Shown here piece after piece: positions 15,351-41,181 of a stretch of DNA of 46,743 bases. Within the stretch, counting starts at the first letter, position 1; each line of letters opens with the position of its first letter. The DNA is from Candidatus Omnitrophota bacterium (GTDB taxonomy: Bacteria > Omnitrophota > Gorgyraeia > Gygaellales > JBFMBJ01), in the NCBI GenBank assembly GCA_040755235.1, contig JBFMBJ010000002.1, positions 1 through 46,743 of the forward strand, written 5' to 3'. The notes beneath the pieces are model-generated. The model worked only from the letters and a program-made list of their open reading frames with translations. It had not been told where the DNA came from and made no database searches. The translations under genes were made by a program, and so were the position numbers.

Positions 15351-17012
15351 TTATGAGGCGGCTTTAGTTCTATAGGAATTAATATCTGCCAAAAATATGT
15401 CATCTCTGCAAACATCTCTAAATGTCCTGTCCTTATTTATCTCTTTATTGGCTTTTAAAAAAAGTCTGCGTAAAGAACGAGAATTAATACAAGCTGACTC
15501 ATACCTTGGCTCGCGAAGTAACTGGCTAAGTGGATTGCCGTTAAGATTAGCAAGGCGTTGTTTTTTAATCCTCATGGCATACTTTTTAAAACTCTTATGA
15601 ATCGTTGTCCCGCATATCACACTTAACATATTAATCTCAAATGTAAAATCAGTTTTATTTGATAATCGCCTATATTCTCTTATCTCTTTTTCGATGTCTT
15701 TTTTATATTGAAAAGGCAATCCAAAAATAGCTGTAATATGGCAGTAAATATTATTTCTTTTGCAATTTATCAATGTTTCCTCAAAGTTATTGACGTCTAT
15801 GCCTTTATTTATGATCTTTGATACTCGAGATACTAATGTTTCAACGCCAAGTTGGATATACCTGCATCCTGATTCATACAATGCTTTCATAAATTTCTTG
15901 TCTTTCAACTTCTTCTCAAAACGCAAACATAAACCATAATTAATTTTAAGACCGGATTTTCTAACTTCTCGTAACAACCTCTCGAGATATCCAACAGTTA
16001 AACAGGGATCAATAAAGAAAAAAATATTTGTCCTATATTTATTTATTAGCATCTTCACGTCTTTGATGACTAAGGCTGGTTTTTTCTGCCTAAATCCCTT
16101 ATTAAAAGACAAGGGTGAGCTGCAGAAGATACATTTATTCCAAGGACAATTCTTGGAAGTTGACAATAATAGCACCCTGCTGGGTAAAATATACTTATCA
16201 ATATCAAAATCAGAGTAATCTGGCGCTGGTAATTTATTAATATCGTTAACTGCCATGAGTCTATTTGTCTTAATAGTATTCTTTTCTAAATAGATCAAGT
16301 TAGGAACCCTCTCTCGAGGCTTTTGGTTTAATAATCCCAGTAAAGCCAGCTCTCCTTCCTTCTCGATTAGATAATCAATAAAGTTATAATTATTTAAAAG
16401 CATGCTTCTTTTTTCTTGGCTCATAATGCTAATTATGTGCCCACCAAAGATTATTGTCCTATTAGAGGAATTTTTTAGCAATTTTGCTAAATAAAGAGAA
16501 AAGGCAAGCTGTGAATAAGAAAAAAGCGAAAAGCCAATAATATCCGGCTGCTCAAAGATTACTTTTTCCATATAATATCTAAATATTCTATCTAAGTCTT
16601 TATTACTATTACTACTTATTCTACTGCTTATAATCCATATCCAGCAATCGACAAAATTTTTGTAAAACTTAGAAATCGAATGCCTTATTTTACATTTTAG
16701 CCGATAATCAAGGGTTGGGTCTTTTAACAGCGTAAGTAAATATAGCGAGGATTTCTTAAATTGCATCTCTTCATCAAATTTATTTTTTTGTTTAGACTGG
16801 GCACAGCCTGCTTTGGTTCTTTTGCAATAAATACAAATGTCCAATACCTTAGTGTCACTAAGCGCGTTAAAGAAGAATTCTTGGTTAAAATCAAAGCATT
16901 TAATCTCATGTTCAGAGTTTAACTCAACATAACTCTTCAGAGAAGAAATGCCGAATGGAATATAACTGGGCAAATCAAGGTTAAAGGGTGGAAAGATTAA
17001 AACTGCTTTCAT
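15351..17012 (-). CDS. B12-binding-domain radical SAM enzyme with a variant Cys motif
   Basis: 553 aa. The N-terminus looks like a B12-binding domain (KAVLIFPP...GFSLFS...FGGH). The cluster motif reads NCPWNKCIFCS, which is Cx4Cx2C rather than Cx3Cx2C. Confidence 0.7.
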   Translation of the reverse strand: MKAVLIFPPFNLDLPSYIPFGISSLKSYVELNSEHEIKCFDFNQEFFFNALSDTKVLDICIYCKRTKAGCAQSKQKNKFDEEMQFKKSSLYLLTLLKDPTLDYRLKCKIRHSISKFYKNFVDCWIWIISSRISSNSNKDLDRIFRYYMEKVIFEQPDIIGFSLFSYSQLAFSLYLAKLLKNSSNRTIIFGGHIISIMSQEKRSMLLNNYNFIDYLIEKEGELALLGLLNQKPRERVPNLIYLEKNTIKTNRLMAVNDINKLPAPDYSDFDIDKYILPSRVLLLSTSKNCPWNKCIFCSSPLSFNKGFRQKKPALVIKDVKMLINKYRTNIFFFIDPCLTVGYLERLLREVRKSGLKINYGLCLRFEKKLKDKKFMKALYESGCRYIQLGVETLVSRVSKIINKGIDVNNFEETLINCKRNNIYCHITAIFGLPFQYKKDIEKEIREYRRLSNKTDFTFEINMLSVICGTTIHKSFKKYAMRIKKQRLANLNGNPLSQLLREPRYESACINSRSLRRLFLKANKEINKDRTFRDVCRDDIFLADINSYRTKAAS

Positions 17013-17021
17013 AATAAATGG

Positions 17022-18740
17022 TTAATGCCGGGAAATGACCGATTTAATTTTATTAAATAACCTGCTGAATCTTCTTAATATGTAAATCGCATATTGCCAT
17101 TTTGACCACCCGACTTCTTGAGGCGGGGGAAACAGTCTTTTTATAATTTTGAGACAATCTTCTATACTGCCTGCTTCCAATATTTCAAAAAAAACATAAC
17201 TTAAGAATCCCTCCAGAACCCTCCTCCTAAAATTTGCATTAAAAATGACGCAACGAGATAAAAAAATCTTTATCAATAATCTTTTAAGAATTCCTGGCTT
17301 AAGTCTGGATAGAACATAATCAGGCACACCTGTGCCTAAAATATATTTTGTCTGATGGAGTGCGGCAAAAACAGAATTATCTATCCGATATTCAATTGCA
17401 TTTTTTATAAATGAATCCCAATCAAAACTATTTTTAGATTTTTCTATTAAGGTTGCTATCTCATAGAAATATTTTATGCTTCTATAACCACGGCTATTCA
17501 CTAAATCTACGCAAAGATAAAGCAATAAAGTTTCATCCGGCCATTCATAATAAAAAAATGCTCTGTTTGCTGCTTCTAAATTTATTTTTTTTGCTTCCTT
17601 CCAAAATCCTTCTATCCTCTCTTTGCTCCTCTTCATCATGGTTATATCCCAGAGCAAATGAAGCGGGAAAGAATCCTTTTTTATAAATAATTTATTCCAG
17701 CGCCAAGTTTTATATTTTTCTTCCTCGACCTGTTTATAGCCATTTTTTTCAAGTAATCCTACTGCTATCGCCTCATCTTCCTCTTTTATCAAAAAATCTA
17801 TATCTGCACTCATACCCCGCATTGAAATATCGCCATAAAGTCTTTTGGATAAATATGTACCTTTTAAGGGGATTGCCTTAATTTGCGCTTGAGAAAATAT
17901 TTCAAGAATCATTAAAGATTGCCTGTAATGCTGCTCGCTTAGGCCAATTGATTCTATCTGGAAACGTTGTAAGCGCTCAAAAACAAATGTTGGCACTTTA
18001 ATAAAATCTGTCAAGGTTTTTAGGGATTTTATTATTTCTTCACTTCTACCATTGTCTATAACCATATCGCAAAACCTATTCCAGCGTACTCCTTCTTTAA
18101 TTAAGTTTAAGGCATTATTCCTTTTTTCTATATTGTTAATACCAGCATTAACAGCAATGACCAGCTGCTGGGCATTGAAAAAAAGCGGGTCAGCGCATTG
18201 AAAGCGCTTTAGCATTTTATTGACTAATAAAGGATATTCCAAAATAAGGCAGAAAAAATTATTTATTATTTTAAACAATAAAGGCGCCCTAAGAGAAAAG
18301 TAAGCGGATAGCCGGTTAAATATTCTATGAGAGATGGTCTGAGTGTTAATGATAGTACCATTGCGTTTTATAGTAATGACCTTACCGAGTATCTGGCGCC
18401 TAACAAAGTAACCTTCCAGGCATTTTGCCGCATTGTCTGCCTTGGTAAAAAAAAGTGGCTGGTCATTCCTTGATGTGATTTTAACTAATCTATGGATGTA
18501 ATTAAAATAGGTATCATCCTCTCTTTCGGCATGCCTAACAGCTACGATATCCCCCAGATGTAAAATTTTATCTATATTGGGCGCGATGGTTAAAATATCG
18601 TAATCCTTAATATAAGGATACATACTATCCCCGTGCACACAGACGTCGATATTTTGGCCATCTTTAAGCGAATGCATATATAGCTTCTCTTTTATATTTT
18701 TGATATCGGTTACAATTCTATTTTTAGTCAGAAGACCCAT
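17022..18740 (-). CDS. Fusion of an S26 (SipW/ER-type) signal-peptidase-like domain to an NTP_transf_5-like nucleotidyltransferase
   Basis: 572 aa. N-terminal peptidase boxes are HGDSMYP, IHRLV and TKADN. The C-terminal part has the RGMSADIDFLIKEED motif typical of the uncharacterised nucleotidyltransferase family. Confidence 0.65.
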   Translation of the reverse strand: MGLLTKNRIVTDIKNIKEKLYMHSLKDGQNIDVCVHGDSMYPYIKDYDILTIAPNIDKILHLGDIVAVRHAEREDDTYFNYIHRLVKITSRNDQPLFFTKADNAAKCLEGYFVRRQILGKVITIKRNGTIINTQTISHRIFNRLSAYFSLRAPLLFKIINNFFCLILEYPLLVNKMLKRFQCADPLFFNAQQLVIAVNAGINNIEKRNNALNLIKEGVRWNRFCDMVIDNGRSEEIIKSLKTLTDFIKVPTFVFERLQRFQIESIGLSEQHYRQSLMILEIFSQAQIKAIPLKGTYLSKRLYGDISMRGMSADIDFLIKEEDEAIAVGLLEKNGYKQVEEEKYKTWRWNKLFIKKDSFPLHLLWDITMMKRSKERIEGFWKEAKKINLEAANRAFFYYEWPDETLLLYLCVDLVNSRGYRSIKYFYEIATLIEKSKNSFDWDSFIKNAIEYRIDNSVFAALHQTKYILGTGVPDYVLSRLKPGILKRLLIKIFLSRCVIFNANFRRRVLEGFLSYVFFEILEAGSIEDCLKIIKRLFPPPQEVGWSKWQYAIYILRRFSRLFNKIKSVISRH

Positions 18741-20511
18741 ATGGCTTTAATTTAAAAAATTCTTTATACTCCTTTGACTTCTCAAGTAACTCGTTGTGTC
18801 GGCCTACGCGCATAATAGTAGGACTCTGAAAAAAATATACTAAATCCATAGCCTGTATCGTAGTCAACCTATGTGAAACCACTATAATAGTGGAGTCATA
18901 AAATTTTCTCTTTATTAATTCAATTATTTCCATCTCTGAAGCTGGATCTAAGGAAGACAACGCTTCATCTAAGATTAAAACCTGTGGCTTTTTTATGATG
19001 GCGCGGGCAATAGCGATGCGCTGTTTTTGTCCTTGAGAAATTTTATAAGCATTTTCACCCACTACTGTATCAAAATCCTGAGGAAGCGACTCAACGAAAG
19101 TCGATGCTCCTACGATTTGCGTCGCCTCAATAATATCTTTTTGAGAAATATCCCTTAAGGCATAAGAGATATTATTAGAGATGCTATCATCAAAAAGAAA
19201 TGGCTCTTGCAAAGCAACGCCAAAATTACCAAGTAGATATTTTGAATCTATATCACCTAACTCATTATTGCCAATTATTATTGTTCCTCCTTTTGGTTTA
19301 TAAAGGCCCAATACTAAATTTAAGAGGGTTGTCTTACCGCATCCGGAGTAACCCACCAAACCGATATGCGAACCGGCGTCAACACTAAAACTCATATTCT
19401 TTAGGAGTTCTCTATCGGGCTGATAAGCAAAACTTACGTTTTTAAATTCAATCTTTCTGATATCAACTGGCCGAGCCAAATCTCGAGGGCTGCGCTTCCT
19501 AGTAACTGATTTATCAAATAAACTTGCTACCCTTTCTAAGGAAACTTTATTAAGCACCAATTCTTCACTCATGTTGATTAAAGTAGAGTAGGCGACAATG
19601 CCTTGCGAGATATAGAGTAAAGTTGCCACCATAGTGCCAAAGGTAATATTCCCCTTTAGCACCAGATAAGCTGCATAAAACGCTAGAATTCCAAAAAATA
19701 TTTTATCCACAAATGAAACTAGAAAATTGGAAATGCCTCTTAGGCGCGCTTCTTTCATATCCAATCTAATCAAATCAAGCAAGTTGTGCATATAATTTGT
19801 TATCTCTCTGCCAATAGTGGCAAATGCCTTCATAAGATAAATATGCGAAAAGAAATTATTAAGAGCGCGATAAATATCTTCCCCTCTCTCTAAGCCTAAT
19901 CTTTTTAATTCCTCGAGAGGTTTTACTAATAATTTCATTCTGGCTATAACTAAAAATTGATAAACAAGGACAATCAACAAAAAGACAGGGTTAATTATAA
20001 TTATAATAATTGTTATAAAAATTATTCTTAAAACAGCATTTATAAGATGGACTAAAGTAACATTTATTATCGTGGCTACGCTAGTAATATCATTGGTTAT
20101 CCGGAATATGTTCCTCGCCATTGGACTTTCTTGCAATTGGCTAAAATCAGAATCTCTAAGTCTCTTAAATAAATCTCTATTAAGATCCACTTCTACTTTA
20201 GCAAGTGCATAATTTTTTAAATAATCAAATGTGATGCTAAAGATAATGCCTAAGAGAAAAACTACAACCGCCAAAAGGCTGTAGGCAAATAATGCATTGA
20301 GGTCTTTAGCAAATATGCCTTTGTCCAAAATTAACTTGCCAAGATAGGGATTAAGCAAAGCAAGCCCCATTGAGAGATTCCCTAAAATCATAATTGAAAG
20401 CTCTAACTTCCAATATCGAAATATATATTTATTAAAGCGCCAAAAAAATTTTAAGGCTTCGTTGATATCCTTTAATACTAATATCTTTCTTTTGGAATCG
20501 ATAAAACTCAT
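18724..20511 (-). CDS. ABC exporter with fused permease and ATPase; no C39 peptidase domain
   Basis: 595 aa. The N-terminal half has six TM segments. Walker A is GYSGCGKTT, the signature is ISQGQKQR, and Walker B is VLILDEA. Confidence 0.85.
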   Translation of the reverse strand: MSFIDSKRKILVLKDINEALKFFWRFNKYIFRYWKLELSIMILGNLSMGLALLNPYLGKLILDKGIFAKDLNALFAYSLLAVVVFLLGIIFSITFDYLKNYALAKVEVDLNRDLFKRLRDSDFSQLQESPMARNIFRITNDITSVATIINVTLVHLINAVLRIIFITIIIIIINPVFLLIVLVYQFLVIARMKLLVKPLEELKRLGLERGEDIYRALNNFFSHIYLMKAFATIGREITNYMHNLLDLIRLDMKEARLRGISNFLVSFVDKIFFGILAFYAAYLVLKGNITFGTMVATLLYISQGIVAYSTLINMSEELVLNKVSLERVASLFDKSVTRKRSPRDLARPVDIRKIEFKNVSFAYQPDRELLKNMSFSVDAGSHIGLVGYSGCGKTTLLNLVLGLYKPKGGTIIIGNNELGDIDSKYLLGNFGVALQEPFLFDDSISNNISYALRDISQKDIIEATQIVGASTFVESLPQDFDTVVGENAYKISQGQKQRIAIARAIIKKPQVLILDEALSSLDPASEMEIIELIKRKFYDSTIIVVSHRLTTIQAMDLVYFFQSPTIMRVGRHNELLEKSKEYKEFFKLKPYGSSD

Positions 20512-20531: not shown

Positions 20532-21353
20532 TTAATGGATAACTGCAAAATAAATATTGCTGTCAGGATCCTTTATTAAGCTATCTACCTTAAAATCTGC
20601 CTCCTCTACCTCATTGATAAATTCCTCATTAGAATTAAACAGGTGATGAAATTCATTTGACGGCAATATCCTATCGCCTTTTTGGTATCTAAAATTTCCG
20701 AAGGAAAGAAAAGCTATTACTTTTCTTAAAATAAAAAATCTATTATTATCTTTTGGTCCCATCCCCCAAAAACTTATATATAATTTTGCACCTTCCTTTA
20801 AAGCCTTCTTCACCTCTTTAAGAAAACTTATTCTCCTTTCTCTTGTAGGTATTGAGCCGTACATACAGGAGGTAATCATAGAAAGGTCGAAAGAAAACTG
20901 CTTAAAAAAAAGGTTTGTGAAATCGCCAATTACAAATTTCATCCTGATTTCAGAACGTAGTGAATTTTCCATTGCCATATCGACCATCTCTTTAACAAAA
21001 TCAACGCCAATAACATCTATTCCAAGTTTAGCCAAAGCAATTGCCTCCCTACCGCCACCGCAGCCTAAAATCAAACATTTGTTTTTTTTGAAATTATATT
21101 TTTCTATAAATTCTTTTTCTGCATCATATAAGCCATCGCTAATTTTGTCCACCCCAAATATTTTAAGTTTTCTATCTTCGCCATAACAAGCCCTATTATA
21201 TTTAATCAAGCTCTCCGGAGTTAAAACCACAGCAAACAATGATTTCAGGAAACCTTTTAGCTTCGATAAAAAAGTATCCAGCAGAGAAATCGGTAATTTC
21301 AATAAATCCAATATCCTTATAAACAAATTTAAAAGTTTAATTTTTAGTCCCAT
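20532..21353 (-). CDS. Class I SAM-dependent methyltransferase
   Basis: 273 aa. Motif I is ILGCGGGREAIALA, followed by GVDF. Confidence 0.7.
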   Translation of the reverse strand: MGLKIKLLNLFIRILDLLKLPISLLDTFLSKLKGFLKSLFAVVLTPESLIKYNRACYGEDRKLKIFGVDKISDGLYDAEKEFIEKYNFKKNKCLILGCGGGREAIALAKLGIDVIGVDFVKEMVDMAMENSLRSEIRMKFVIGDFTNLFFKQFSFDLSMITSCMYGSIPTRERRISFLKEVKKALKEGAKLYISFWGMGPKDNNRFFILRKVIAFLSFGNFRYQKGDRILPSNEFHHLFNSNEEFINEVEEADFKVDSLIKDPDSNIYFAVIH

Positions 21354-21390
21354 ATAATATTTGTTAAAATAGCCATCTCGACTATAATAA

Positions 21391-21419
21391 TTGACCTCTT
21401 ATTTTGCCTATGTTAATAT
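21391..21419 (+). promoter_or_regulatory. Sigma70-like promoter candidate for the plus-strand PqqD and HprK-like pair
   Basis: TTGACC (21391-21396), a 17-nt spacer, then TAATAT (21414-21419). This is about 20 nt upstream of the ATG at 21440, which has an AGGA Shine-Dalgarno (SD) sequence. Chance matches are possible in AT-rich DNA. Confidence 0.4.
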
Positions 21420-21439
21420 AATTATGTGAGATAGGAAAA

Positions 21440-21724
21440 ATGGAAAAACTAAAACAAAAATATAATTTAAAGTACGAAAATATTGTCTGGGCAAAGGTAG
21501 GCAGAAAATATTTAGTAGTCTTGCTAAATAAAAAAGATATAAAAGACTCACTTTTCACAACAAATAAGTGTAGTATTGATATATTAGATTGGCTACTGAC
21601 TAAAAAATCTTCCGAGAAAATTATTAATCTTTTATCCAAAAAATACTCTTTAAGTCATAGACGCGCAAAAACTGACTTTTTAAAATTTATTGCTAAATTA
21701 GAAAGCCTTAAGGTTATAGATTAA
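21440..21724 (+). CDS. PqqD-family protein (RRE-type peptide chaperone)
   Basis: 94 aa. Size and pattern (VGRKYLVVLLNKK...FTTNKCSIDILDWLL...IINLLSKKYSLS...DFLKFIAKLESLKVI) fit the PqqD fold. Confidence 0.65.
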   Translation: MEKLKQKYNLKYENIVWAKVGRKYLVVLLNKKDIKDSLFTTNKCSIDILDWLLTKKSSEKIINLLSKKYSLSHRRAKTDFLKFIAKLESLKVID

Positions 21725-21731
21725 TCTAAAA

Positions 21732-22640
21732 ATGTATAGTAAAGATATTTATCTACATAATATAAAATTAAATTTTAATTGTAATAACTATAAAATCTTT
21801 AAAGATTTTTGCGAGCAGCTTAATTTTCCCAGATTTAGGCAATATAAAAAATATATCAAAGTCAAAATTAATCTTTCTTTAGTTGCTGCTATATCTACCG
21901 ATGAACGAGCTGATATTTTTAATACAGAAGCAAAAAATTTTAATCTAAATTGCTGGATAAAAAATATATCTTTAAAACTCGAGCGTAAAACTAATACAAT
22001 TAACGCGCAATTAATTTATCCAACTCACCTATCAATAGATAATTTGCTGCATCTAATAGTAATCGCCCCGTTAAGAAGAATTTTACAAAAATATAATATA
22101 TTTTTACTCCATGCAGGAGTGGTTTCAAAGAATGATAAAACCATATTGCTCTTTGCTGGCCCGGGCAGAGGAAAAAGCACGCTAACAACTTCCTTCCTCT
22201 TGGCTGGTTACGACGTTCTTTCAGATGAGTTCGCTATCTATAAGGACAAAAAGGTATTTAGCTTTCCCATAAAAATAAAATTAGATAGAAAAACTCTTCT
22301 TTGTCTAAAATGGAACAGAACACTAAGGCCGTGTTTCTACGTTAAGGATTTTTCCTCTTCCCAAGTTATTGAATTTAGCAAGCCCCTGTTGAGTTTATTC
22401 CTGCGCCAGGCAACAGAAAGTTTGAGAATTCCTCGCTTCAGTATGCTTGATCCTCTGGATGCCTTTAGATTTTTAGCACGTGACAAAGTAAATAGCCTTA
22501 CTTACGAAAAAGACCCATTGTTACGCAGACGCCAGCTTGATGCATTAGCTAATATAGCCCAGAAAACAAGATGCTATACCATAATTTATAATTTAAAACA
22601 TATAAAACAGATTCCCAAGATAGTTCAAGAAATTATCTAA
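21732..22640 (+). CDS. HPr-kinase-related P-loop protein
   Basis: 302 aa. LLHAGVVSKNDKTILLFAGPGRGKSTLTTSFLLAGYDVLSDEF parallels the HprK/P catalytic core (H-G...G.SG.GKS...G..L..D). Confidence 0.65.
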   Translation: MYSKDIYLHNIKLNFNCNNYKIFKDFCEQLNFPRFRQYKKYIKVKINLSLVAAISTDERADIFNTEAKNFNLNCWIKNISLKLERKTNTINAQLIYPTHLSIDNLLHLIVIAPLRRILQKYNIFLLHAGVVSKNDKTILLFAGPGRGKSTLTTSFLLAGYDVLSDEFAIYKDKKVFSFPIKIKLDRKTLLCLKWNRTLRPCFYVKDFSSSQVIEFSKPLLSLFLRQATESLRIPRFSMLDPLDAFRFLARDKVNSLTYEKDPLLRRRQLDALANIAQKTRCYTIIYNLKHIKQIPKIVQEII

Positions 22641-28259: not shown

Positions 28260-28376
28260 CTAAGTTACATTACCCCCTACAGCAATATCTAAGAGTTTAT
28301 ATTTTATAAGCTTGGGCTTTTCGTATTTCTCGGGGCTTTTTCTTACCTCCTTACAATTCTTCCTATCCTTTTTCAT
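28260..28376 (-). CDS. 38-aa candidate precursor peptide, absent from the ORF track
   Basis: My own translation of the minus strand: ATG at 28376, with a GGAGG SD (ccaGGAGGcataacATG) upstream. The product is MKKDRKNCKEVRKSPEKYEKPKLIKYKLLDIAVGGNVT, ending at a TAG at 28260-28262. It lies 41 nt upstream of the PqqD gene. Confidence 0.55.
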   Translation of the reverse strand: MKKDRKNCKEVRKSPEKYEKPKLIKYKLLDIAVGGNVT

Positions 28377-33665: not shown

Positions 33666-34043
33666 TTATATTGATAACCTATCATTAGTAAATTTAATTA
33701 GGGAATTAATTTCTTTTGGCAATTTTTGTAATTCTCCAGATATATATTTATACTCGCCCTCTTTTAATAGGCCCCTTATCTTTGCTTTATTTGCCCAATC
33801 AAAAGATTCATCAAGTGAGCCATAACTATAACGATAAAAATTGACCTTATCCTTTTTAAAATATCTTCCAAATCCTTCAGCGATATTAGAAGATATAGAA
33901 TCCACTGCCCTTACCAACTGCCTGCCAACAGTATCCTTTGCAAAATAATCCCATTTAATCACAACATCCCAAACGTAATTGGACAAATTAAAAGCAATTT
34001 TATAAGCACTAATATCATTTAATTCTAAATATCTTTTTGTCAT
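33666..34043 (-). CDS. Four-helix-bundle protein of the 23S rRNA intervening-sequence protein family
   Basis: 125 aa. AEGFGRYFKKDKVNFYRYSYGSLDES matches the family's EG.gR...f..fl..a.GS..E signature. Confidence 0.75.
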   Translation of the reverse strand: MTKRYLELNDISAYKIAFNLSNYVWDVVIKWDYFAKDTVGRQLVRAVDSISSNIAEGFGRYFKKDKVNFYRYSYGSLDESFDWANKAKIRGLLKEGEYKYISGELQKLPKEINSLIKFTNDRLSI

Positions 34044-34045: not shown

Positions 34046-34096
34046 TAATTTAACGGTTTATTTTAGCAATTTAACAGTTTGACAATTTAACAGTTT
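34046..34096. repeat. Three direct copies of (T/C)AATTTAAC(G/A)GTT(T)
   Basis: TAATTTAACGGTT lies at 34046-34058. CAATTTAACAGTTT lies at 34068-34081 and again at 34083-34096. The third copy overlaps the stop of the rSAM gene at 34087. Confidence 0.7.
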
Positions 34097-35163
34097 AACT
34101 TTGCTCTTTCCTGTGACATTGCCTTGGCAAACTGGCAAAAATATGGCGTGGGAGATTCTTCATTGCCAGTTTCTAAAAATGCTATTGCCGGGCAATTAAT
34201 GCAGTTCGACCTCAAAGAGCATTTCCTGCACTCAGATTTAGTTCTAAAATGTTGCTTTAGAACCTGTGGCAGTATTTCATAAAAGCCCTCTTTAAAACTC
34301 GTTGTCCTTAAATCAACGCTGAATTTATCCGAGAGCATGCAGAATTTAAGCCTGCCAAATGGGTCAATAATAAATTCTTCCATCCAGCTATTACATTGAT
34401 AGAGAAAGCCTCTTCCTCTCTTTAAACTACTTAAACTGCTGTGTAAATTTCTTTTATATTCCTGCCATATATCCAAATCTTCTTTAGCAAGGTCTGTTAA
34501 TTCTCTGAAGGAAAGCCTTAAATTACTTAACGCATTATCAAGGTTTAACCTGGGATAAAGTATCGGGTCGTATTTGAAATAATACTTATCTTTTCCTTTT
34601 CCTAAAAACTTTTCAGTAAATTCCTTTATTTTTACAATCTCATTTTTATTCTGTTTAAGCGCATTTGCCTTTAAAATGAGAGGCAATTTTCTTTCTTTTA
34701 TTTTTTTAATATTTTCCAGGGTTTTCGCAAATGAGCCGCTTACTTGGGTAACTGCCTCATATGTTGCCTGCGTAATAGCGTTTAGGGTAATCTCGATAGA
34801 AAACGGTGGGAATTTCTCAAGATAATCTAAAATTTCATCTGTGAATAAAAGGCCATTACTAAATATGGTTATAATAAAACCTTTCTTCTTAACATAGGAA
34901 TAAATTTCCAAAAAATCATTCCTTATTAATGGCTCGCCTCCGCTAAATACAAGCGAGAGGCAGCCTTCTTTAGAGAGCTGGTTAAAGATATTTCTAAATT
35001 CTTCAGATGATAATTCTTTCCCTTTCTCTTCGCAGCCTTTGCAATAACAATGTATACAATTTAGATTACATCTATAGGTAAGCTCAATATGGCCTTTCCA
35101 GGGATACTGGTCTTTTTTTCTAAACAGACTTGTAAAAAAATGCGCTGAGCTATGCGTTTTCAT
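34087..35163 (-). CDS. Radical SAM/SPASM enzyme (paralogue set)
   Basis: 358 aa. The cluster motif is ELTYRCNLNCIHCY, followed by VFSGGEPLIR, then CNSW...GRLKFCM...CRKCSLRSNCINCPA. Confidence 0.85.
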   Translation of the reverse strand: MKTHSSAHFFTSLFRKKDQYPWKGHIELTYRCNLNCIHCYCKGCEEKGKELSSEEFRNIFNQLSKEGCLSLVFSGGEPLIRNDFLEIYSYVKKKGFIITIFSNGLLFTDEILDYLEKFPPFSIEITLNAITQATYEAVTQVSGSFAKTLENIKKIKERKLPLILKANALKQNKNEIVKIKEFTEKFLGKGKDKYYFKYDPILYPRLNLDNALSNLRLSFRELTDLAKEDLDIWQEYKRNLHSSLSSLKRGRGFLYQCNSWMEEFIIDPFGRLKFCMLSDKFSVDLRTTSFKEGFYEILPQVLKQHFRTKSECRKCSLRSNCINCPAIAFLETGNEESPTPYFCQFAKAMSQERAKLNC

Positions 35164-35179: not shown

Positions 35180-35374
35180 TTAAGAAGAAGGGGTGTTGGG
35201 AGTTTTGGAACATGAAAATGACAGGTCGCCTTTACTTGTTCCGCAATAACTATAACTCTTCCTGCCAGTTAAAGTTCCGTATCCTGTCGTAATACAATTA
35301 CAAGTTATAACTGCCTGCTCAGGGTTGAGTTTTATGCGGGTGATTTCAGGTTCAAATTTTGGCTTTGTTGGCAT
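35180..35374 (-). CDS. Candidate RiPP precursor peptide A2 (64 aa)
   Basis: MPTKPKFEPEITRIKLNPEQAVITCNCITTGYGTLTGRKSYSYCGTSKGDLSFSCSKTPNTPSS. An AGGAGG SD lies 6 nt upstream. It is a paralogue of 36006-36200 and is flanked by maturase-type genes. Confidence 0.8.
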   Translation of the reverse strand: MPTKPKFEPEITRIKLNPEQAVITCNCITTGYGTLTGRKSYSYCGTSKGDLSFSCSKTPNTPSS

Positions 35375-35390: not shown

Positions 35391-35972
35391 CTAATTACCG
35401 AACTCTTTTAAGGCTAAATTTTTTGTTACCAAGTCATAAGTAATGACTCTCTGATATCTACTACAGTTATTATTACTAAAGTTGTTTTTTAATGAATTTA
35501 TATTTAAAAAAGGATATTTTTTAATTTCGTTTATTTGTCCGAGAATTAAATTATTTACTACGGTATTATTAATTAGATTATCGTTTGTATATAAATTCAA
35601 CAGTTCAATATCATAAATAGCTGCATCAGCAATAATCGTATGTCCTTGTTTAAGTATTGTTTTCCTTGTATCATTAATAGCGCTTTCTAATTTTTTAAGA
35701 GTACTCTCGTCAGTTACCTGGCCAAAAAAAACATTCGACACATCGCCGGTAAAAAACTCTGAAAAACAGGTTCCCTCAATACAATAAGAAACTATCTTTT
35801 GCCTGCCATCTTTAACTCTTTCTGCTATGAAAAAATTTGAATCCCTTATTTGTATGCCTCCTATATATAAACGAATCTTGTCCCTTTTTTGGTCACACCC
35901 TTCTGAAAATAAGTAAGCAGCATTAAATAAAAAAATAACACTTATTATCCCTATCCACATTTTCTTGTTCAT
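35391..35972 (-). CDS. Secreted or membrane-anchored protein of unknown function
   Basis: 193 aa. The N-terminal hydrophobic segment is MNKKMWIGIISVIFLFNAAYLF. An AAGGAG SD is present. I recognise no motif in it. Confidence 0.6.
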   Translation of the reverse strand: MNKKMWIGIISVIFLFNAAYLFSEGCDQKRDKIRLYIGGIQIRDSNFFIAERVKDGRQKIVSYCIEGTCFSEFFTGDVSNVFFGQVTDESTLKKLESAINDTRKTILKQGHTIIADAAIYDIELLNLYTNDNLINNTVVNNLILGQINEIKKYPFLNINSLKNNFSNNNCSRYQRVITYDLVTKNLALKEFGN

Positions 35973-35994: not shown

Positions 35995-36012
35995 GTCTTA
36001 ATGACTTAAGAC
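35995..36012 (-). other. 7-bp stem / 4-nt loop hairpin overlapping the stop codon of precursor A1
   Basis: GTCTTAA-TGAC-TTAAGAC on the plus strand; the stems are exact reverse complements. The stem is A/T-rich, so stability is modest. Confidence 0.4.
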
Positions 36013-36200
36013 GATGCTGTGGCAGCAACTTTCGAACATGTAAATGACAGGTCGCCTTTAGCTGTCTGACAAAGTGTATAAGATCTGCTAAGGGTATAAG
36101 TTCCATAGCCTGTCGTAATACAATTACAAGTTATGACTGCCTGCTCAGGGTTGAGTTTTATGCGGGTGATTTCAGGTTCAAATTTTGGCTTTGTTGGCAT
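36006..36200 (-). CDS. Candidate RiPP precursor peptide A1 (64 aa)
   Basis: MPTKPKFEPEITRIKLNPEQAVITCNCITTGYGTYTLSRSYTLCQTAKGDLSFTCSKVAATASS. I moved the start from 36221 to the ATG at 36200. The reasons are a GGGGGTG SD 6 nt upstream and a start and length identical to paralogue A2. Confidence 0.8.
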   Translation of the reverse strand: MPTKPKFEPEITRIKLNPEQAVITCNCITTGYGTYTLSRSYTLCQTAKGDLSFTCSKVAATASS

Positions 36201-36220: not shown

Positions 36221-37261
36221 TTAGAGATACAATAAAGCCTGTTTATAAAATTCTTCGTCTGGATTTAAGGCACAATCGTAATCAATATCTGCAAATCCTC
36301 TTTTCTCGCCACTAATAATGCCTCTTAAAAATTTAGTTTCGTTTGAACAATCATGCAAAACCACATTTTTCCACCCCTCTTTGGCTGCTACCTCAAAAAT
36401 ATTATATGTTAATTGCCTACTTTTTATCGGCGATACGTAACCTAACTTATAGCGATAAATAGTACCTTCTTTGCTAAAATTATCTTTGGTTTTAGGAAAT
36501 AACTGTAATTCTGCAAAATGTATATGGTCAACCCCAGTATCCAATATTGCCTTTTTCTTTTTCATAAAACTTTCGTAAAAGAGAGTAAACATAGGAGACT
36601 CAATGCAAAGATACTTAAAATATTTCCTTGCCTGGCTCATGTTTTTAATGACTTCTTCAGAACAGTTTGTTGCTGCCAAATTAAACCGTATTTCATCAAG
36701 GCCGGCATCTTTTAACTTTTTTAAATTTTCTTTGTTGGCAAGCAAGCCATTTGTATACAGCCATTGATGGTAGCCCAGATTATGAATGAATTTCATAAGA
36801 GGTAACATCTTATCCATATCCATCAAGGGTTCAAAATGTAACCACGCTACGCCGTTAAGGAATTTCTTAGCATGCGTTTCAAATAGCAATTCCATATCCT
36901 TTTCATTAAATAATCTCCTCGAGACCAGATACAAATCGTGGGGAATAAATTCCTGCTCCGTGGTTTCTTTCTCGCCAAAATAATAACAAAAAGAACAATT
37001 AAGATTACATTTAGTAGTAGTCCTAATCTGCGTCCATCTGCCTTTTAAGCAACAACGCTTACAACCAGGAGTTAAATCGCCATTACCCCAAACTGCAGTG
37101 TAGTCAAAATTGTCTAATTTTAAGCCAGGAATCTCCTTCTGGCGTTTTCTTATCTGCGAGATAACTTTTTTCTCTAATGCAACTTCAATTTCTAAAAGCT
37201 TTGCACCAGCTACTCTTTTTTCAAATTCAGATTCAGTCTGTTTTGGCTTTTTCCTAATCAT
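36221..37261 (-). CDS. Radical SAM enzyme without an obvious SPASM tail and with extra N-terminal cysteines
   Basis: 346 aa. The cluster motif is TTKCNLNCSFCYY, preceded by TPGCKRCCLKG. The stop lies 20 nt upstream of the precursor A1 start. Confidence 0.75.
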   Translation of the reverse strand: MIRKKPKQTESEFEKRVAGAKLLEIEVALEKKVISQIRKRQKEIPGLKLDNFDYTAVWGNGDLTPGCKRCCLKGRWTQIRTTTKCNLNCSFCYYFGEKETTEQEFIPHDLYLVSRRLFNEKDMELLFETHAKKFLNGVAWLHFEPLMDMDKMLPLMKFIHNLGYHQWLYTNGLLANKENLKKLKDAGLDEIRFNLAATNCSEEVIKNMSQARKYFKYLCIESPMFTLFYESFMKKKKAILDTGVDHIHFAELQLFPKTKDNFSKEGTIYRYKLGYVSPIKSRQLTYNIFEVAAKEGWKNVVLHDCSNETKFLRGIISGEKRGFADIDYDCALNPDEEFYKQALLYL

Positions 37262-37281: not shown

Positions 37282-38895
37282 TTAAACTAACTCCTGCTTA
37301 GCTCCTAATTGCCTTAAAAAACTATCTGCCTTTATATCTATTCTTTTCCTTAGAATTTGGGGCAACTCAACCCTACCATATTTATGATAGTAGAAACCAG
37401 CGAATTCCTTAAACAATCCAGTAAGTTTAATCAGGGCTACTATGTTTAATGCCTTATTCAATTTTCCATCTCCCTGCTCGCTTTCAGATTTTTTGTTTAA
37501 CTCTGAAAATATTGAGTAAGCCCAAGGGTGGTTTAAACTTAACCAGGAATCTAATGCCACACAGATGTCAGAAAATCTTCTTGAAAGCGAATCAGATAAC
37601 AGGTAGATTACTTCTTTAAAAAACTCATTGCCAAATACATAAAGTAGCATAAATTTTAGATTGTCCATCCTCTCTAATTCTTCTTTGCCGAAAGTATTTG
37701 CTTGTAATACAAAATGGGGTGCTTTTTTTTCATATTTGATTTTGAATTCTTTAGCATAGTTGCGTAAATATGTCCCTGGTAAAAGCATTAATTTCGGTAT
37801 TTCAATCGAGGGCGGCTTTAAACTGCAAACCCAATTAATAGATTTCTTAAAAGATGAGTAATTGTCTCCTGGCAGACCTTCGATTATCTGAATTACATAA
37901 TTTATTTTCTTTTTATTAAGTAAGCCGATATTTTGCTTAAAACGAACTGGGCTGAAATCGCGCTTAACCAAAGCCAGTGCTTTTCTATTTGTACTTTGTA
38001 GGCCTATCTCTAAGAAACCAACTCCTGCTTTAGAAAGAAGTTCAATTAGCTCCTTATCCAATAGTTCTGCTTTTAATTCAACGTGAAGATGAGAATCTTT
38101 CTTATGTTTAATAAAGAAGCGCAATATTTCCTTTGACCTATCAATTTTTAAATTAAATGTCGGGTCCATCAAGTATATGATCTTAATATTTTTACTTAAT
38201 AAATATCTTAATTCCTCCTTTACTCTTTGCATGGAAAAGAATCTTACGCCCCAGAATTGTTTATGATAATAACAATAACGGCAACTAAAAGTGCAGCCTC
38301 GCATTGTCTCTAAACAGGCATCTTTCTTGTTAACTTTAATTGTCCCGCTTAAGTATGGAGAAGGTATGGTGTCTAAGTTTTGAATTTGTGCGCGAAAAGG
38401 AGTTTCAATAACATTGCCGTTATTTCTATAACAAAGGCCCTTGATCTTCGACAAATCTCTGCTATCATTAAGCCATGAGTCAACAAGCTCCTTAAAGGTC
38501 TCTTCTCCTTCATTTATCACAACAGCATCTATTAGCGGTTCAGCCCTTAGCAGGTTTTTTGCCTGGGCTGAAACTTCTGGACCGCCTAAAACAATCTTAA
38601 GATAAGGGAAATTGCGTTTCAGTAACCGCACTATCTCTAAGGTTTTATCAATATTCCAGACATAACAGGAAAACCCTAGCATATGAGGCTTGAGTCTGGC
38701 TAATTTAAAAGTTATCGCCTCATTAGAATCAAAAATAGAAAAAGTCTGAATCTTAATGTCAACTAATTTAGAGAACTCACTATATCTTGAAAAATAGACC
38801 TTTAGATAAGATAGGGCAAGCTCTTTATATCTATCTTTGAGATATAAGCTGACTAAAATGATTCTTTTCTTCTGCCGACTTACCTTTTTAATCAT
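37282..38895 (-). CDS. B12-binding-domain radical SAM enzyme (class B, methyltransferase-like)
   Basis: 537 aa. The N-terminus has a B12-like domain (RIILVSL...LGFSCYVWN...LGGPEV), followed by MRGCTFSCRYCYY. Confidence 0.8.
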   Translation of the reverse strand: MIKKVSRQKKRIILVSLYLKDRYKELALSYLKVYFSRYSEFSKLVDIKIQTFSIFDSNEAITFKLARLKPHMLGFSCYVWNIDKTLEIVRLLKRNFPYLKIVLGGPEVSAQAKNLLRAEPLIDAVVINEGEETFKELVDSWLNDSRDLSKIKGLCYRNNGNVIETPFRAQIQNLDTIPSPYLSGTIKVNKKDACLETMRGCTFSCRYCYYHKQFWGVRFFSMQRVKEELRYLLSKNIKIIYLMDPTFNLKIDRSKEILRFFIKHKKDSHLHVELKAELLDKELIELLSKAGVGFLEIGLQSTNRKALALVKRDFSPVRFKQNIGLLNKKKINYVIQIIEGLPGDNYSSFKKSINWVCSLKPPSIEIPKLMLLPGTYLRNYAKEFKIKYEKKAPHFVLQANTFGKEELERMDNLKFMLLYVFGNEFFKEVIYLLSDSLSRRFSDICVALDSWLSLNHPWAYSIFSELNKKSESEQGDGKLNKALNIVALIKLTGLFKEFAGFYYHKYGRVELPQILRKRIDIKADSFLRQLGAKQELV

Positions 38896-39806
38896 CTCTT
38901 CAAAGAAATCCCCCTTACAAACTCAATCATCTCTTTATCGTTTTTAAACCCTAATTTAAAACAGGGAACTTCTTTTGTTAACTGCGACGAAAATCTGATA
39001 GCATTGCCTATGCCTTTTCTATCCCAAAAGGTATGAAACGTGCAGGGATACAAAAGATTAAATGCCTTAACAGTTGGTACTAATTGGAAGGAATTAAATT
39101 TTGAGTGCTCGAGGAAAAAAACAGAGTTTAAATCAGTTGTTTCTATCTTAGAGATAAGATAGTCAGTGAATTCGCCGTGCCAAGGACAACCATAAATTAA
39201 GAATTTATCTTTATTCTTTCTAATAATAATTCTATCATCGTTTAACACTGTTGCCTCACTAAACTTATGCCAGATTCTCGCTGTAGTTGATTTGCCGTCG
39301 CCTGATTTGCCTACAAATAAGAGCCCCCTTTTATCAATATCTTTCATGCCTACTGCGTGGACAAAGATGCCGTCCCGACCTGTTATATAATTTATCAGAA
39401 TTACCTGAAGCGCATCGTAGATAATATCCTCTGGTTTCCAAGAACCATCAGCATCGGCCGTAGTTTTATAATAAACCTTTCCTCGGGTGAAATCCTGGTT
39501 AAGAAAAATCTCATGTATTTTACTTACAACAAATGTCGCTAATATAAATAAACCATTGCTTTTATACAAAGCCCAGTTTTTTTCGTTTGTGGCAGGATGG
39601 CGAGTTAGAAAAATTCTTTTCTTACTAAACTTGACTTTTGGTAATTGATTAACTACTTCTATTGTCAAAACAATTTGCGCTCGCTTTTTGCCTTTATAAA
39701 TAAAGTTACAAAAACGCCAACTTATTTTCTCGTTAATTGGCTGCATGGGAAATTTACTCTTTAGTTCTATTATTATGTCAGCAATCTTTAGTTTTAGAGT
39801 AGTCAT
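38892..39806 (-). CDS. HPr-kinase-related P-loop protein
   Basis: 304 aa. FVHAVGMKDIDKRGLLFVGKSGDGKSTTARIW...VLNDDRIII matches the HprK/P core pattern. The gene overlaps both neighbours. Confidence 0.65.
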   Translation of the reverse strand: MTTLKLKIADIIIELKSKFPMQPINEKISWRFCNFIYKGKKRAQIVLTIEVVNQLPKVKFSKKRIFLTRHPATNEKNWALYKSNGLFILATFVVSKIHEIFLNQDFTRGKVYYKTTADADGSWKPEDIIYDALQVILINYITGRDGIFVHAVGMKDIDKRGLLFVGKSGDGKSTTARIWHKFSEATVLNDDRIIIRKNKDKFLIYGCPWHGEFTDYLISKIETTDLNSVFFLEHSKFNSFQLVPTVKAFNLLYPCTFHTFWDRKGIGNAIRFSSQLTKEVPCFKLGFKNDKEMIEFVRGISLKR

Positions 39807-40854
39807 CAGACACCAAACTCGCCATTTCGCACCACCATTTTATTGGTGCTTCTAAATCGCCTGTTTCAAGATATGCATCGCCTGGACAAGTAAAGCAGTG
39901 CTTTTTTAACTGGCAAAACCTGCACTTTGAATCTGTAACATATCCTCTTTGTCTCATATCTCTAAAGACAATAAGGGCCTCTTCAATAGGGGAAGTTAAA
40001 ATATCAGAACATTCATTCCTCAGAAAAGGACAGAACAATATCTGTCCATAAGGAGTTAGGGTCAAGCTACTCCCGCAACCTGCCGAACAGTAGAAGGGAG
40101 AATCTTCTTGATTTGCCTTCCCATCAGACCTTGAGCATTCCTTAAAGAAACTTAATTGGGGGTCTACCTGCTTATTAATTAAAAGGGCTTCCCTTGGGCT
40201 TAGACGCAAGGAACAAGGAAACTGCTCATTATTAAGGCGTGCTCTAATATAAAAATCCGGAAAAAATTTAAGATTTAAACTTTCTACGAATCTCCTTATC
40301 TGCCAAATTTCTTTCACATTATCATTTATCAATATTGTTTTAATTTTTAAAGGCATCTTGTTCTTAATCAATAGCCTTAAGCCCTGCATTGACTTAGAAA
40401 AACTATCTTTAAGCCCAGAGATTTCTTCAAAAGTATCTTTTCTAATAGAATTCAGAGTGATCTCAATAACAAAAGGCGGTTTTTTTTGCAGGCGCTTAAC
40501 AATTTCTTCATTTATAGAATATGAGGTAGTAAATATAGTAATGATAAAACCCAATTTCTTAGCATAATCATAAATTTCGAAGAAATCTTCCCTTGCCAAT
40601 GGGTCTCCGCCAGTAAAACAAAGCCAGATGACCCCGAGCAGATAAAGTCTATCCAAGGTAGATTTAACCTGCTCTGTAGATAATTCTTTTTTAATAAGTT
40701 CTTTTTTGTTGTAACAGTCGCTATAACAGTATTTGCAATGGAAATCACATTTAAAGGTTAGTTCAAACTGACAGAGGTTTACACTACCGCTTTGCCAGTT
40801 TCTTTGGTGGGTTTTTAAGCTAAAGTCCTTATACTGAAGTTCTTTCATATACAA
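39778..40854 (-). CDS. Radical SAM/SPASM enzyme (paralogue set)
   Basis: 358 aa. The cluster motif is ELTFKCDFHCKYCY, followed by CFTGGDPLAR, then CSAGCGSS...GQILFCP...CRFCQLKKHCFTCPG. Confidence 0.85.
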   Translation of the reverse strand: MYMKELQYKDFSLKTHQRNWQSGSVNLCQFELTFKCDFHCKYCYSDCYNKKELIKKELSTEQVKSTLDRLYLLGVIWLCFTGGDPLAREDFFEIYDYAKKLGFIITIFTTSYSINEEIVKRLQKKPPFVIEITLNSIRKDTFEEISGLKDSFSKSMQGLRLLIKNKMPLKIKTILINDNVKEIWQIRRFVESLNLKFFPDFYIRARLNNEQFPCSLRLSPREALLINKQVDPQLSFFKECSRSDGKANQEDSPFYCSAGCGSSLTLTPYGQILFCPFLRNECSDILTSPIEEALIVFRDMRQRGYVTDSKCRFCQLKKHCFTCPGDAYLETGDLEAPIKWWCEMASLVSDDYSKTKDC

Positions 40855-40863
40855 TTTAGCAGT

Positions 40864-41181
40864 TTAAATAACCGCCTTTATCTCTTTCAAGTCTTTAAAA
40901 AGACTTTTTAGTTCTCTTTCGGCCTCTTTCTCATTTGTGTCAAATTCTTTTAACATCTTATCTTTTATGTTATCTATTGAATTTTTACCATCTATCATAT
41001 CCCAGATACGAGAAGCACAATTATTTAAAGTGTAGATGCAGTTAAGATCGTCAGAGGCCTTAAAGATCGGCACTAAGATGGTTTCTCCTTCTATTTTTCT
41101 GGTAACCATATCAGGATTTTTCTTAAATACTAAAGAATCAGATAAGTCAATTGCACTTTTTTTTAATGTTTTTTTCTGCAT
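40864..41181 (-). CDS. PqqD-family RRE protein; first gene of the long minus-strand operon
   Basis: 105 aa. The PqqD pattern is VTRKIEGETILVPI...CIYTLNNCASRIWDMIDGKNSIDNIKDKMLKEF...ELKSLFKDLKEIKAV. A G-rich SD is present. Confidence 0.8.
   Translation of the reverse strand: MQKKTLKKSAIDLSDSLVFKKNPDMVTRKIEGETILVPIFKASDDLNCIYTLNNCASRIWDMIDGKNSIDNIKDKMLKEFDTNEKEAERELKSLFKDLKEIKAVI

Follow-up and report, generated by a model that had tools for sequence, protein, structure and literature searches.

A Radical SAM-Rich, RiPP-Like Island beside an Exopolysaccharide Locus of Candidatus Omnitrophota, with a Core Resembling That of Linear Polyphosphorylated Peptides

Introduction

What kind of product would call for nine radical S-adenosylmethionine (rSAM) enzymes encoded side by side with predicted kinases and peptide recognition proteins, and does such a locus belong to any known biosynthetic class? 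This question is raised by an island of about 26 kb (positions 15351-41181) in a stretch of 46,743 nucleotides from a Candidatus Omnitrophota bacterium (contig JBFMBJ010000002.1 of assembly GCA_040755235.1), the whole of which is referred to here as the window. A first-pass annotation had listed the genes of this island, likened them to those for peptides that are synthesized ribosomally and modified post-translationally (RiPPs), and considered that they fit no described class. By scanning the open reading frames (ORFs) with Pfam and NCBIfam models, we reproduced every count in that list: nine rSAM enzymes, three PqqD-type RiPP recognition elements (RREs), two P-loop proteins of the HprK fold, two Peptidase_S24-NTP_transf_5 fusions, one ATP-binding cassette (ABC) exporter, two GT4 glycosyltransferases, one GNAT acetyltransferase, two methyltransferases, and three precursor ORFs (A1, A2, and B; Table 1). 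These data support a RiPP-like island whose precursor genes are genuine and conserved, and which also encodes RREs and many maturases.

We favor, with moderate confidence, a composite RiPP pathway in which rSAM enzymes would cross-link the precursor peptides, after which phosphorylation, glycosylation, leader removal, and export would follow by means of a set of proteins like that of the linear polyphosphorylated peptides (LPPs), with a functional tie to the neighboring exopolysaccharide (EPS) locus. LPP clusters (lppAKBSDN) were defined and demonstrated experimentally by Popov et al. (2026, Nat Commun, PMC13381572). The earlier view that the island fits no described class thus stands for its A-type precursor family, which is undescribed, and falls for its five-part core, which corresponds to the LPP definition. 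Our observations concern gene content, conservation, catalytic motifs, folds, fusions, and peptide invariants, from which we infer all the chemical steps proposed below.

The island contains a single operon-like run from 41181 down to 22652. Twenty co-directional genes had been reported there; we count 21 ORFs (18 proteins and 3 peptides), and every intergenic gap lies between -29 and +43 nt. Shine-Dalgarno strength within the run is highest ahead of the three peptide ORFs. A scan of the window for consensus promoters and terminators gave results at chance level, and hence is uninformative about operon structure. Nine rSAM genes within 26 kb are far above genomic density: by a rough estimate, many fewer than one would be expected.

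Precursor Peptides and Their Recognition Elements

The A-type peptides are a large precursor family that has not yet been described. A1 and A2 share 80% identity, with identical leaders and upstream regions; the start of A1 is corrected here from 36221 to 36200. The A-type leader, KFEPEITRIKLNPEQAV here, has the consensus KPKFxPxITRxKLNPEQAVL and is followed by an invariant CxC and a hypervariable core. With A2 as query, a word-index search recovered nothing beyond the window's own protein, and the family emerged solely from an exhaustive search of 1.84 billion representative proteins with a profile made from A1 and A2, which gave at least 707 clusters at 50% identity (E ≤ 0.001). Residue statistics were drawn from the top 148 genuine matches, 143 of them bearing the NPEQA leader. 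CxC stands directly after the leader in 143/143 of the latter, the core contains 3-5 Cys in all but two (range 2-6), and the C-terminal residue is Ser in 136/143 and Thr in 5/143. Gly, Ser, and Thr are abundant in the cores, which among the top matches extend 17-73 residues beyond the leader motif. Two long repeat proteins that also appeared in the profile search (P0135 and P0221) were inspected and set aside as spurious. The A-type peptides have no Pfam or NCBIfam model, and a literature search on their leader motif found no paper.

Orthologous A-type peptides are present in all the related loci that we read (L030, L031, L032, L033, L036, L037, and L038), and some of these loci carry several divergent copies. 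The peptides are always accompanied there by the ScmC-like kinase, SPASM rSAM paralogues, and the ABC exporter; a PqqD1-like RRE is found in every A-type locus not interrupted by a contig end, and S24 plus NTP_transf_5 in most. Intact peptides end in Ser in 8/8 contexts read. An apparently decayed copy in L038 (9715-9975) keeps the leader, has lost CxC (LLRSC), and ends in ...HNA instead of Ser; it adjoins an inserted NTP_transf_2/NTase_sub_bind pair.

The A-type peptides could be imagined as precursors of an intracellular cofactor or of a redox- or metal-binding factor, as with PQQ and mycofactocin, that is never exported. PqqE and a mycofactocin maturase are among the best matches of the rSAM enzymes, the peptides are invariant at CxC and at the C-terminal residue, and decoration by glycosyltransferases and methyltransferases is known for mycofactocin. 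However, cores that are hypervariable and reach the lengths given above are unlike cofactor precursors, and several divergent copies are found in some loci; in addition, a dedicated ABC exporter is present in all A-type loci and a leader peptidase in most, and no partner oxidoreductases were seen in the loci read. We therefore regard a cofactor role as very improbable.

A diversity-generating retroelement was tried as the source of the hypervariable cores, prompted by a bAvd-like gene and a reverse transcriptase directly after an A-type gene in L031 (13571-15001) and by the bAvd-like IVP gene of the window. The idea was rejected for the sequence examined: two scans of the window and L031 for template and variable repeats with adenine-only mismatches were empty, the A1/A2 differences are not adenine-specific, and no repeats were found.

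The other precursor, B, lies directly upstream of PqqD2, and a 47-residue ORF with the motif YEKPALTKY takes the same position in L003, L004, and L033. The best PDB matches of PqqD2 are lasso-peptide RREs, namely TbiB1 (5v1u, 3e-7), then 9x90_B and TfuB1, and its score with lasso_PqqD_Bac is 48 bits, under the cut-off of 80. PqqD1 likely reads the A-type leader; in L031, L032, L033, and L036, its orthologues (42-59% identity) lie ahead of or together with A-type peptides. PqqD3 orthologues (33-41% identity) always adjoin the kinase gene. Antisense to PqqD3 is an ORF of 85 residues (21382-21639, minus strand) that matches no family and is probably spurious and not a precursor.

Radical SAM Enzymes and Glycosyltransferases

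Four of the rSAM enzymes (rSAM1, rSAM4, rSAM5, and rSAM6) are SPASM paralogues with 26-32% mutual identity, each with CX3CX2C and a tail of seven Cys. For rSAM1, every specific NCBIfam model scored below its cut-off. The accessory enzymes are more varied: the first B12-binding rSAM has a 47% identical orthologue in L033, rSAM7 has a 40% identical one in L003, and the L003 counterpart of rSAM8 is a GT4-rSAM-SPASM fusion of 775 residues. In L003, L004, and L033, the counterpart of the GT4 gene adjoining rSAM8 is fused to the rSAM8 orthologue, and in L001 to a PqqD domain; rSAM8 may accordingly be read as the functional partner of that GT4. The other GT4 (29989-31278) has TIGR04157 (glyco_rSAM_CFB) as its best NCBIfam match (99.7 bits, below the cut-off). 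Together, the GT4-PqqD, GT4-rSAM/SPASM, and S24-NTP_transf_5 fusions suggest a shared set of RRE-bound peptides as the substrate of the peptidase, the nucleotidyltransferase, the glycosyltransferase, and one or more of the rSAM enzymes.

Outside the island, within the EPS locus, lies a tenth rSAM gene (3345-4772), B12-binding and BchE-like (277 bits against a cut-off of 481). Beside it are two methyltransferase genes (4799-5593 and 5601-6266), an ArnC/PpgS-like GT2 gene (2620-3348), and a PMT_2 GT-C gene (1050-2630).

The first-pass annotation had named, as the result that would speak against a peptide pathway, rSAM genes belonging to unrelated sugar or cofactor pathways, and this is not what the profile models indicate. 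AhbD, NirJ, PqqE, and MoaA are matched only at the superfamily level, with scores of about 70-135 bits where the cut-offs are 265-650, and peptide-maturase models (WgkB, StsB, PqqE, mycofactocin, and AlbA) score the island enzymes equally with the sugar and cofactor models. It might still be argued that most of the rSAM, glycosyltransferase, methyltransferase, and GNAT genes tailor polysaccharide or nucleotide sugars, and that a small LPP-like set alone works on peptides, given that AhbD, NirJ, and MoaA, which are not peptide enzymes, are among the best rSAM matches. The tenth rSAM and its two methyltransferases sit in the EPS locus proper, rSAM8 is fused to GT4 in relatives, and in L032 and L038 glycan genes, GT4 among them, are interspersed within the cluster. 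On the other side, the occurrence of the four SPASM paralogues is strictly coupled to that of Cys-bearing A-type peptides and an RRE, SPASM rSAM numbers (3-4) by our own count approximately follow core Cys numbers (3-4), and the L001 fusion ties GT4 itself to an RRE domain. Glycan tailoring as the main task of these genes is, in our estimate, quite improbable.

Kinases, Peptidase-Nucleotidyltransferase Fusions, and Exporter

The first-pass annotation had singled out a triad of PqqD, HprK-like, and NTP_transf_5 proteins joined to candidate substrates, and domain matches together with the conserved precursors bear this out. The ScmC-like P-loop protein has at least 171 homologues at 42-53% identity, most of which carry PF27840 (ScmC); all those with a source name are from Omnitrophota/Omnitrophica, and the others are metagenome proteins. 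TIGR04355 and TIGR04249 match it weakly. Its AlphaFold2 model (mean confidence, pLDDT, 90.9) has PEPCK and HprK/P as top Foldseek matches. The HprK_rel_A-like protein scores 58.1 bits with TIGR04352 (cut-off 200), across 55 residues of the P-loop region only, and has orthologues in L001-L006 and L033. PDB sequence searches with this protein, with the whole S24-NTP_transf_5 fusion, and with a single S24 domain gave no match.

In both fusions, the best NCBIfam match of the S24 domain is TIGR02228 (43.8 and 31.8 bits, just below the cut-off of 51.85); the cut-off of PF14907 is 31.2 bits. Conserved motifs are (S/C)MxP, HR, (G/A/S)D(N), and GDIDLL, the last of which is invariant in the nucleotidyltransferase part. 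When 12 S24 domains, free-standing examples from L032 and L036 among them, were combined into a profile, it matched human SEC11A (E = 2.3e-10), with its SMxP, HR, and GDN boxes aligned to the catalytic boxes, which points to a Ser-His-Asp signal peptidase of the ER/archaeal type. The predicted catalytic Ser35 (GxSMxP) is replaced by Cys (GSCMxP) in the homologues P0005, P0007, and P0008. The model of the first fusion (pLDDT 76.5) resembles, by Foldseek, ANT(2'')-Ia, LnuA, and TM1012 in its nucleotidyltransferase part and SipA and SEC11C in its N-terminal domain; ANT(2'')-Ia was likewise the template used for PsmN of pseudomycoidin biosynthesis (PMC6993621).

Homologues of the fusion (38-49% identity) come from Candidatus Omnitrophota/Omnitrophica metagenome-assembled genomes or from metagenome contigs, and a scan of a genome collection found two full-length fusions, both on short Omnitrophota contigs. 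The arrangement of the two domains varies: S24-NTP in the window, NTP-S24 in L037, and adjacent separate genes in L032 and L036. Orthologues of the second fusion adjoin the ABC gene in L001-L003, L006, L031, and L033, and orthologues of the ABC exporter occur in all loci (28-64% identity).

Modularity of the Island and Its Exopolysaccharide Neighborhood

A metagenome scan for related loci gave one close locus. Comparison with syntenic loci, which had been proposed as a check, showed the whole island in L033 in the same order and at the same site, that is, between the same flanking genes: PqqD1, rSAM1, ScmC-like, B12-rSAM, A, rSAM4, rSAM5, GT, rSAM6, B, PqqD2, rSAM7, GT4-rSAM8, S24-NTP, the divergent kinase with PqqD3, ABC, and the second S24-NTP. 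Between the two loci, identity is 71% (PpiD) and 83% (PEP-CTERM ATPase) for flanking proteins, against 37-57% for the island proteins, so that the pace of evolution is much higher in the island than around it. Simpler, A-type-only versions in L031, L036, L037, and L038 consist of an RRE, the ScmC-like kinase, three or four SPASM rSAM enzymes, the ABC exporter, and S24 plus NTP_transf_5, and have no module of B, PqqD2, and rSAM7. In these simpler loci, the A-type rSAM genes run straight on into ABC and the second S24-NTP; in the window, other modules intervene, and this displacement suggests that tailoring and export are shared. The island is a composite of separable modules, and not one indivisible system. 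Relative to its relatives, the window adds rSAM3, A1, a 193-residue protein, the IVP protein, a methyltransferase, GNAT, and the second B12-rSAM.

The reported adjacency of an EPS/envelope locus is real and is kept in relatives. In the left flank, a pepcterm_export match exceeds its cut-off, and a gene like pepcterm_ATPase, an HD-GYP-like HD_5 protein, and a flippase are present; an exosortase gene was not detected among the window ORFs scanned. EPS genes like those of the window flank the island in L001-L004, L006, L030, L031, and L033, and EPS-type genes lie within 10 kb in 7/8 independent A-type contexts. LPP clusters have been described as restricted to Bacillota and sited in capsule loci, and paeninodin clusters are similarly placed in Bacilli (PMC13381572). 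This like association, taken together with the frequency of EPS adjacency, makes a role in the envelope or EPS plausible.

Separable modules could also mean that two or three independent RiPP systems (A-type, B-type, and LPP-like), each with its own product and no tie to EPS, happen to share a variable region. The existence of A-type systems that lack B, PqqD2, and rSAM7, the presence of three RREs and two kinases, the low identity of island proteins compared with flanks (typical of fast-evolving accessory regions), and L037, which lacks EPS export genes, are all in keeping with this explanation. Such collocation does not readily account for the conservation of the full composite, its gene order, and its site in L033 despite the divergence of the proteins, for the packing of 21 ORFs with gaps of at most 43 nt, for the tailoring and export in common implied by the placement of ABC and the second S24-NTP, or for EPS-type genes near 7/8 contexts, and we hold it to be rather unlikely. 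All three alternatives (collocation, glycan tailoring, and a cofactor) fit the evidence less well than the composite pathway.

Proposed Composite Pathway

The composite pathway can be outlined in eight steps. It would start from the encoded precursors A1, A2, and B, whose leaders would be bound by discrete RREs, with PqqD1 reading the A-type leader and PqqD2 the YxxPxL leader of B. The four SPASM paralogues and the accessory rSAM enzymes may then cross-link the 3-5 core Cys, and B12-binding rSAM enzymes may C-methylate the peptides, as their families suggest. The HprK-fold kinases would phosphorylate Ser, in A-type peptides most likely the C-terminal one by analogy with PadeK, PsmK, and LppK: PsmK phosphorylates the C-terminal Ser of the pseudomycoidin precursor, PadeK does likewise in paeninodin (PMC6993621), and LppK polyphosphorylates Ser (PMC13381572). 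NTP_transf_5 domains and GT4 enzymes might next put sugars on the phosphate or the peptide, with further decoration by GNAT and the methyltransferases; PsmN, an NTP-transferase, is needed for the hexose on the phosphate and is inactivated by the double mutation D134A/D136A (PMC6993621). The fused ER/archaeal-type signal-peptidase-I domain, whose catalytic residues are seen, would cut off the leader as LppS does (PMC13381572), the MsbA-like ABC transporter would export the product, and the product would have its role at, or together with, the envelope or exopolysaccharide that the neighboring locus makes. Phosphorylation through export make up the LPP-like core; leader recognition and cross-linking form an rSAM extension that is not reported for characterized LPP clusters. 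Given nine rSAM genes, the product is argued not to be simply linear.

Several points weigh against this pathway. All island proteins stay below the cut-offs of the specific NCBIfam models, equivalogs included, and the cross-links are most likely thioethers only as a guess at the family level. The modules are found separately, with L031 lacking B, PqqD2, and rSAM7, so that one joint product is not established, and EPS export genes are missing from the neighborhood of one A-type locus, L037. B is found in two lineages only, and the core of the window's B has no Ser. The A-type leader (FxPxI...NPEQA) is without the LPP motif [Y/W]xxP. LppK targets core Ser3 and not a C-terminal Ser (PMC13381572), so that the C-terminal site proposed here follows from the lasso analogy and conservation alone. 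LppN was inactive in the heterologous host, and the end product and role of LPPs were left open (PMC13381572).

A bolder extension of the composite pathway is that the A-type peptides, phosphorylated at the C-terminus and extended with sugars, could serve as covalent primers, anchors, or caps for EPS, i.e., as peptide-phosphoglycan conjugates. We consider this extension unlikely. If it were true, the island would be integral to envelope and EPS assembly in Omnitrophota, the occurrence of LPP and paeninodin clusters in capsule loci of Bacilli would be explained, and the hypervariable cores and fast-evolving island would amount to surface variation.

Positions of the Features and Other Genes

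Table 1. Features of the island and its left flank, by position in the window.
Feature	Position	Strand	Description
EPS context	7721-15196	-	XrtA/PEP-CTERM-type export/assembly: ATPase, HD, Poly_export, Wzz/tyrosine kinase, Wzy_C, deacetylase
Second B12-rSAM	15351-17012	-	CX4CX2C (C289, C294, C297), not canonical CX3CX2C; rSAM_ocin_1 107 bits, below cut-off
Second S24-NTP_transf_5 fusion	17022-18740	-	PF14907 114.7 bits; 24% identical to first fusion
ABC exporter	18724-20511	-	MsbA-like, without C39 peptidase domain; ABC_membrane + ABC_tran; TIGR02203 272.8 bits
Class I SAM methyltransferase	20532-21353	-	273 aa; homologue at same position in L002
PqqD3	21440-21724	+	RRE paired with HprK_rel_A-like gene; PF05402 25.6 bits (cut-off 23.4)
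HprK_rel_A-like P-loop protein	21732-22640	+	Predicted second peptide kinase; Walker A GPGRGKST, LSDE motif
First S24-NTP_transf_5 fusion	22652-24313	-	ER/archaeal-type signal-peptidase-I-like domain (predicted leader peptidase) + nucleotidyltransferase; PF00717, PF14907 145.6 bits
rSAM8	24314-25483	-	Clear SPASM domain, E = 2.1e-15; weaker Cys-rich tail
GT4 glycosyltransferase	25473-26648	-	Glycos_transf_1 2.6e-43
rSAM7	26658-27932	-	HxsC-like, weaker Cys-rich tail; TIGR03977 129.9 bits (cut-off 267.9)
PqqD2	27922-28218	-	Lasso-B1-like RRE; PF05402 56.5 bits
B	28260-28376	-	38-aa precursor; lasso/LPP-type leader motif YEKPKLIKY; ribosome-binding site (RBS) AGGAGG
GNAT acetyltransferase	28395-28943	-	Acetyltransf_1 5.6e-17; window-specific
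rSAM6	28936-29976	-	SPASM paralogue; Radical_SAM + SPASM matches; orthologue in L033
GT4-type glycosyltransferase	29989-31278	-	429 aa; Glycos_transf_1 3.9e-31; L033 orthologue 40% identical
Class I SAM methyltransferase	31281-32621	-	446 aa; Methyltransf_11, _31, _25; window-specific, none in L033
rSAM5	32628-33632	-	SPASM paralogue; orthologues in all A-type loci
23S_rRNA_IVP protein	33666-34043	-	bAvd-like four-helix; PF05635 73 bits; none in L033
rSAM4	34087-35163	-	SPASM paralogue; orthologues (37-56% identity) in every A-type locus
A2	35180-35374	-	A-type precursor peptide, 64 aa; leader KPKFEPEITRIKLNPEQAV, CNC motif, four Cys, C-terminal SS; RBS AGGAGGTG
193-aa protein	35391-35972	-	Hydrophobic N-terminal signal/anchor; between A1 and A2; window-specific
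A1	36006-36200	-	A-type precursor peptide, 64 aa; C-terminal -SS; RBS AGGGGGTG
rSAM3	36221-37261	-	Plain rSAM, additional N-terminal CxxCC; PF04055 36 bits; window-specific, none in L033
First B12-rSAM	37282-38895	-	PF02310 + PF04055; predicted C-methyltransferase; KedN5-like 171 bits (cut-off 700)
ScmC-like P-loop protein	38892-39806	-	HprK/PEPCK fold; predicted peptide Ser kinase; Walker A GKSGDGKST, LNDD motif
rSAM1	39778-40854	-	SPASM paralogue; Radical_SAM 1.7e-19; CX3CX2C at residue 36; 32% identical to rSAM4
PqqD1	40864-41181	-	Discrete RRE, operon head; PF05402 43 bits (cut-off 23.4)

The 193-residue protein has no Pfam or NCBIfam match, and may have an accessory or immunity function; its gene seems to belong, with rSAM3 and A1, to a window-specific insertion. 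The 23S_rRNA_IVP protein is inserted in the operon and probably outside the pathway. A GNAT domain, the type of which is encoded by a separate gene in the window, is fused to NTP_transf_5 in L031. Ahead of PqqD1, the window has a divergently oriented PpiD-like gene (41406-42920), and L031 (5902-7428) and L032 (6755-8221) have a tetratricopeptide-repeat protein with FlmR_OhkR_N (PF12640). Pairs of Peptidase_U32-family genes occur within the A-type variants of L032 (13790-15415) and L036 (13342-15239), with none in the window.

Comparison with Known Systems

The first-pass annotation had related the triad to the SynChlorMet and HPr-rel-A systems, with which the island does share the combination of a PqqD protein, an HprK-like P-loop protein, and SPASM rSAM enzymes. 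These are distant relatives only. The equivalog models all fall well short of their cut-offs: ScmD 23.8 against 100, ScmC 17.8 against 125, ScmE at most 89.5 against 400, and ScmF at most 97.4 against 400 bits (TIGR04248-04251), and the HPr-rel-A kinase model TIGR04352 about 58 against 200. A literature search on SynChlorMet, the HprK-related kinase, and HPr-rel-A found no paper, and hence no product is available for comparison. As regards the His-Xaa-Ser system, the HxsC-like score of rSAM7 is less than half the cut-off (Table 1), and neither A nor B has an HxS repeat.

What the island has in common with sactipeptides and ranthipeptides is an RRE, precursors that contain Cys, and SPASM rSAM enzymes in which the auxiliary-cluster Cys number seven. 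The AlbA, SkfB, PapB, StsB, and CefB models are all below cut-off on the island rSAM enzymes. In contrast to the one maturase of those systems, four paralogues accompany the peptides here; the island cores are much longer and hypervariable, and a layer of kinase, nucleotidyltransferase, and glycosyltransferase is added.

The phosphorylated and glycosylated lasso peptides paeninodin and pseudomycoidin share more protein types with the island, i.e., an HprK-family kinase, an NTP_transf_5-like enzyme (with a DxD motif in those systems), a B1-type RRE, a YxxPxL leader, and an ABC exporter. The lasso pairing of a B1-type RRE with a [Y/W]xxPx[L/V/I] leader is found in PqqD2, which resembles TbiB1, and in B (YEKPKL; YEKPAL in L033). 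A lasso Asn-synthetase-like cyclase and a transglutaminase-like B2 protease were not found among the window proteins scanned with Pfam and NCBIfam; the island instead has rSAM enzymes and a signal-peptidase-like leader peptidase.

The closest comparison is with LPP clusters, whose defining domains are TIGR02228, PqqD, an HprK-like kinase, NTP_transf_5, and TIGR02203 (PMC13381572; models in its Supplementary Data 2). The earlier statement that the triad is known only computationally is not supported as it stands, since LPPs have been shown experimentally (PMC13381572) and C-terminal Ser tailoring has been reported for paeninodin and pseudomycoidin (PMC6993621). Judged from sequence, the island appears to hold all five features: an archaeal/SipW-type (TIGR02228-type) signal peptidase I, a discrete PqqD RRE, an HprK-like kinase, NTP_transf_5, and an MsbA-like ABC transporter. 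The polysaccharide-locus setting is also shared, as are precursors with a conserved N-terminus and a variable C-terminus. When the LPP leader motif YxxPxVLxHQxIxFETxxS is compared with B (YEKPKLIKYKLLDI), the YxxPx[L/V] pattern and the hydrophobic positions after it match (Y, P, L, and hydrophobic residues), whereas HQ and FET differ; the A-type leader does not match the motif. The island differs further in belonging to Omnitrophota, in having its peptidase fused to the nucleotidyltransferase in two copies, in adding nine rSAM enzymes, two GT4, GNAT, and methyltransferases, and in the C-terminal position of the conserved Ser of A-type peptides, as opposed to Ser3.

What is new here, compared with these systems, is an LPP-like core, fused and duplicated, that is joined outside Bacillota to an rSAM-rich maturation of an undescribed precursor family. 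The LPP-type tailoring core is thereby extended from Bacillota to an uncultivated phylum and coupled to heavy rSAM chemistry, and the occurrence of peptidase and nucleotidyltransferase genes as fusions in both orders or as neighbors offers independent genomic evidence that NTP_transf_5 works with leader removal. The A-type invariants, CxC and the C-terminal Ser, give sharp and inexpensive predictions for mass spectrometry, and adjacency to polysaccharide export in two unrelated phyla makes a role for phosphopeptides of capsule loci testable.

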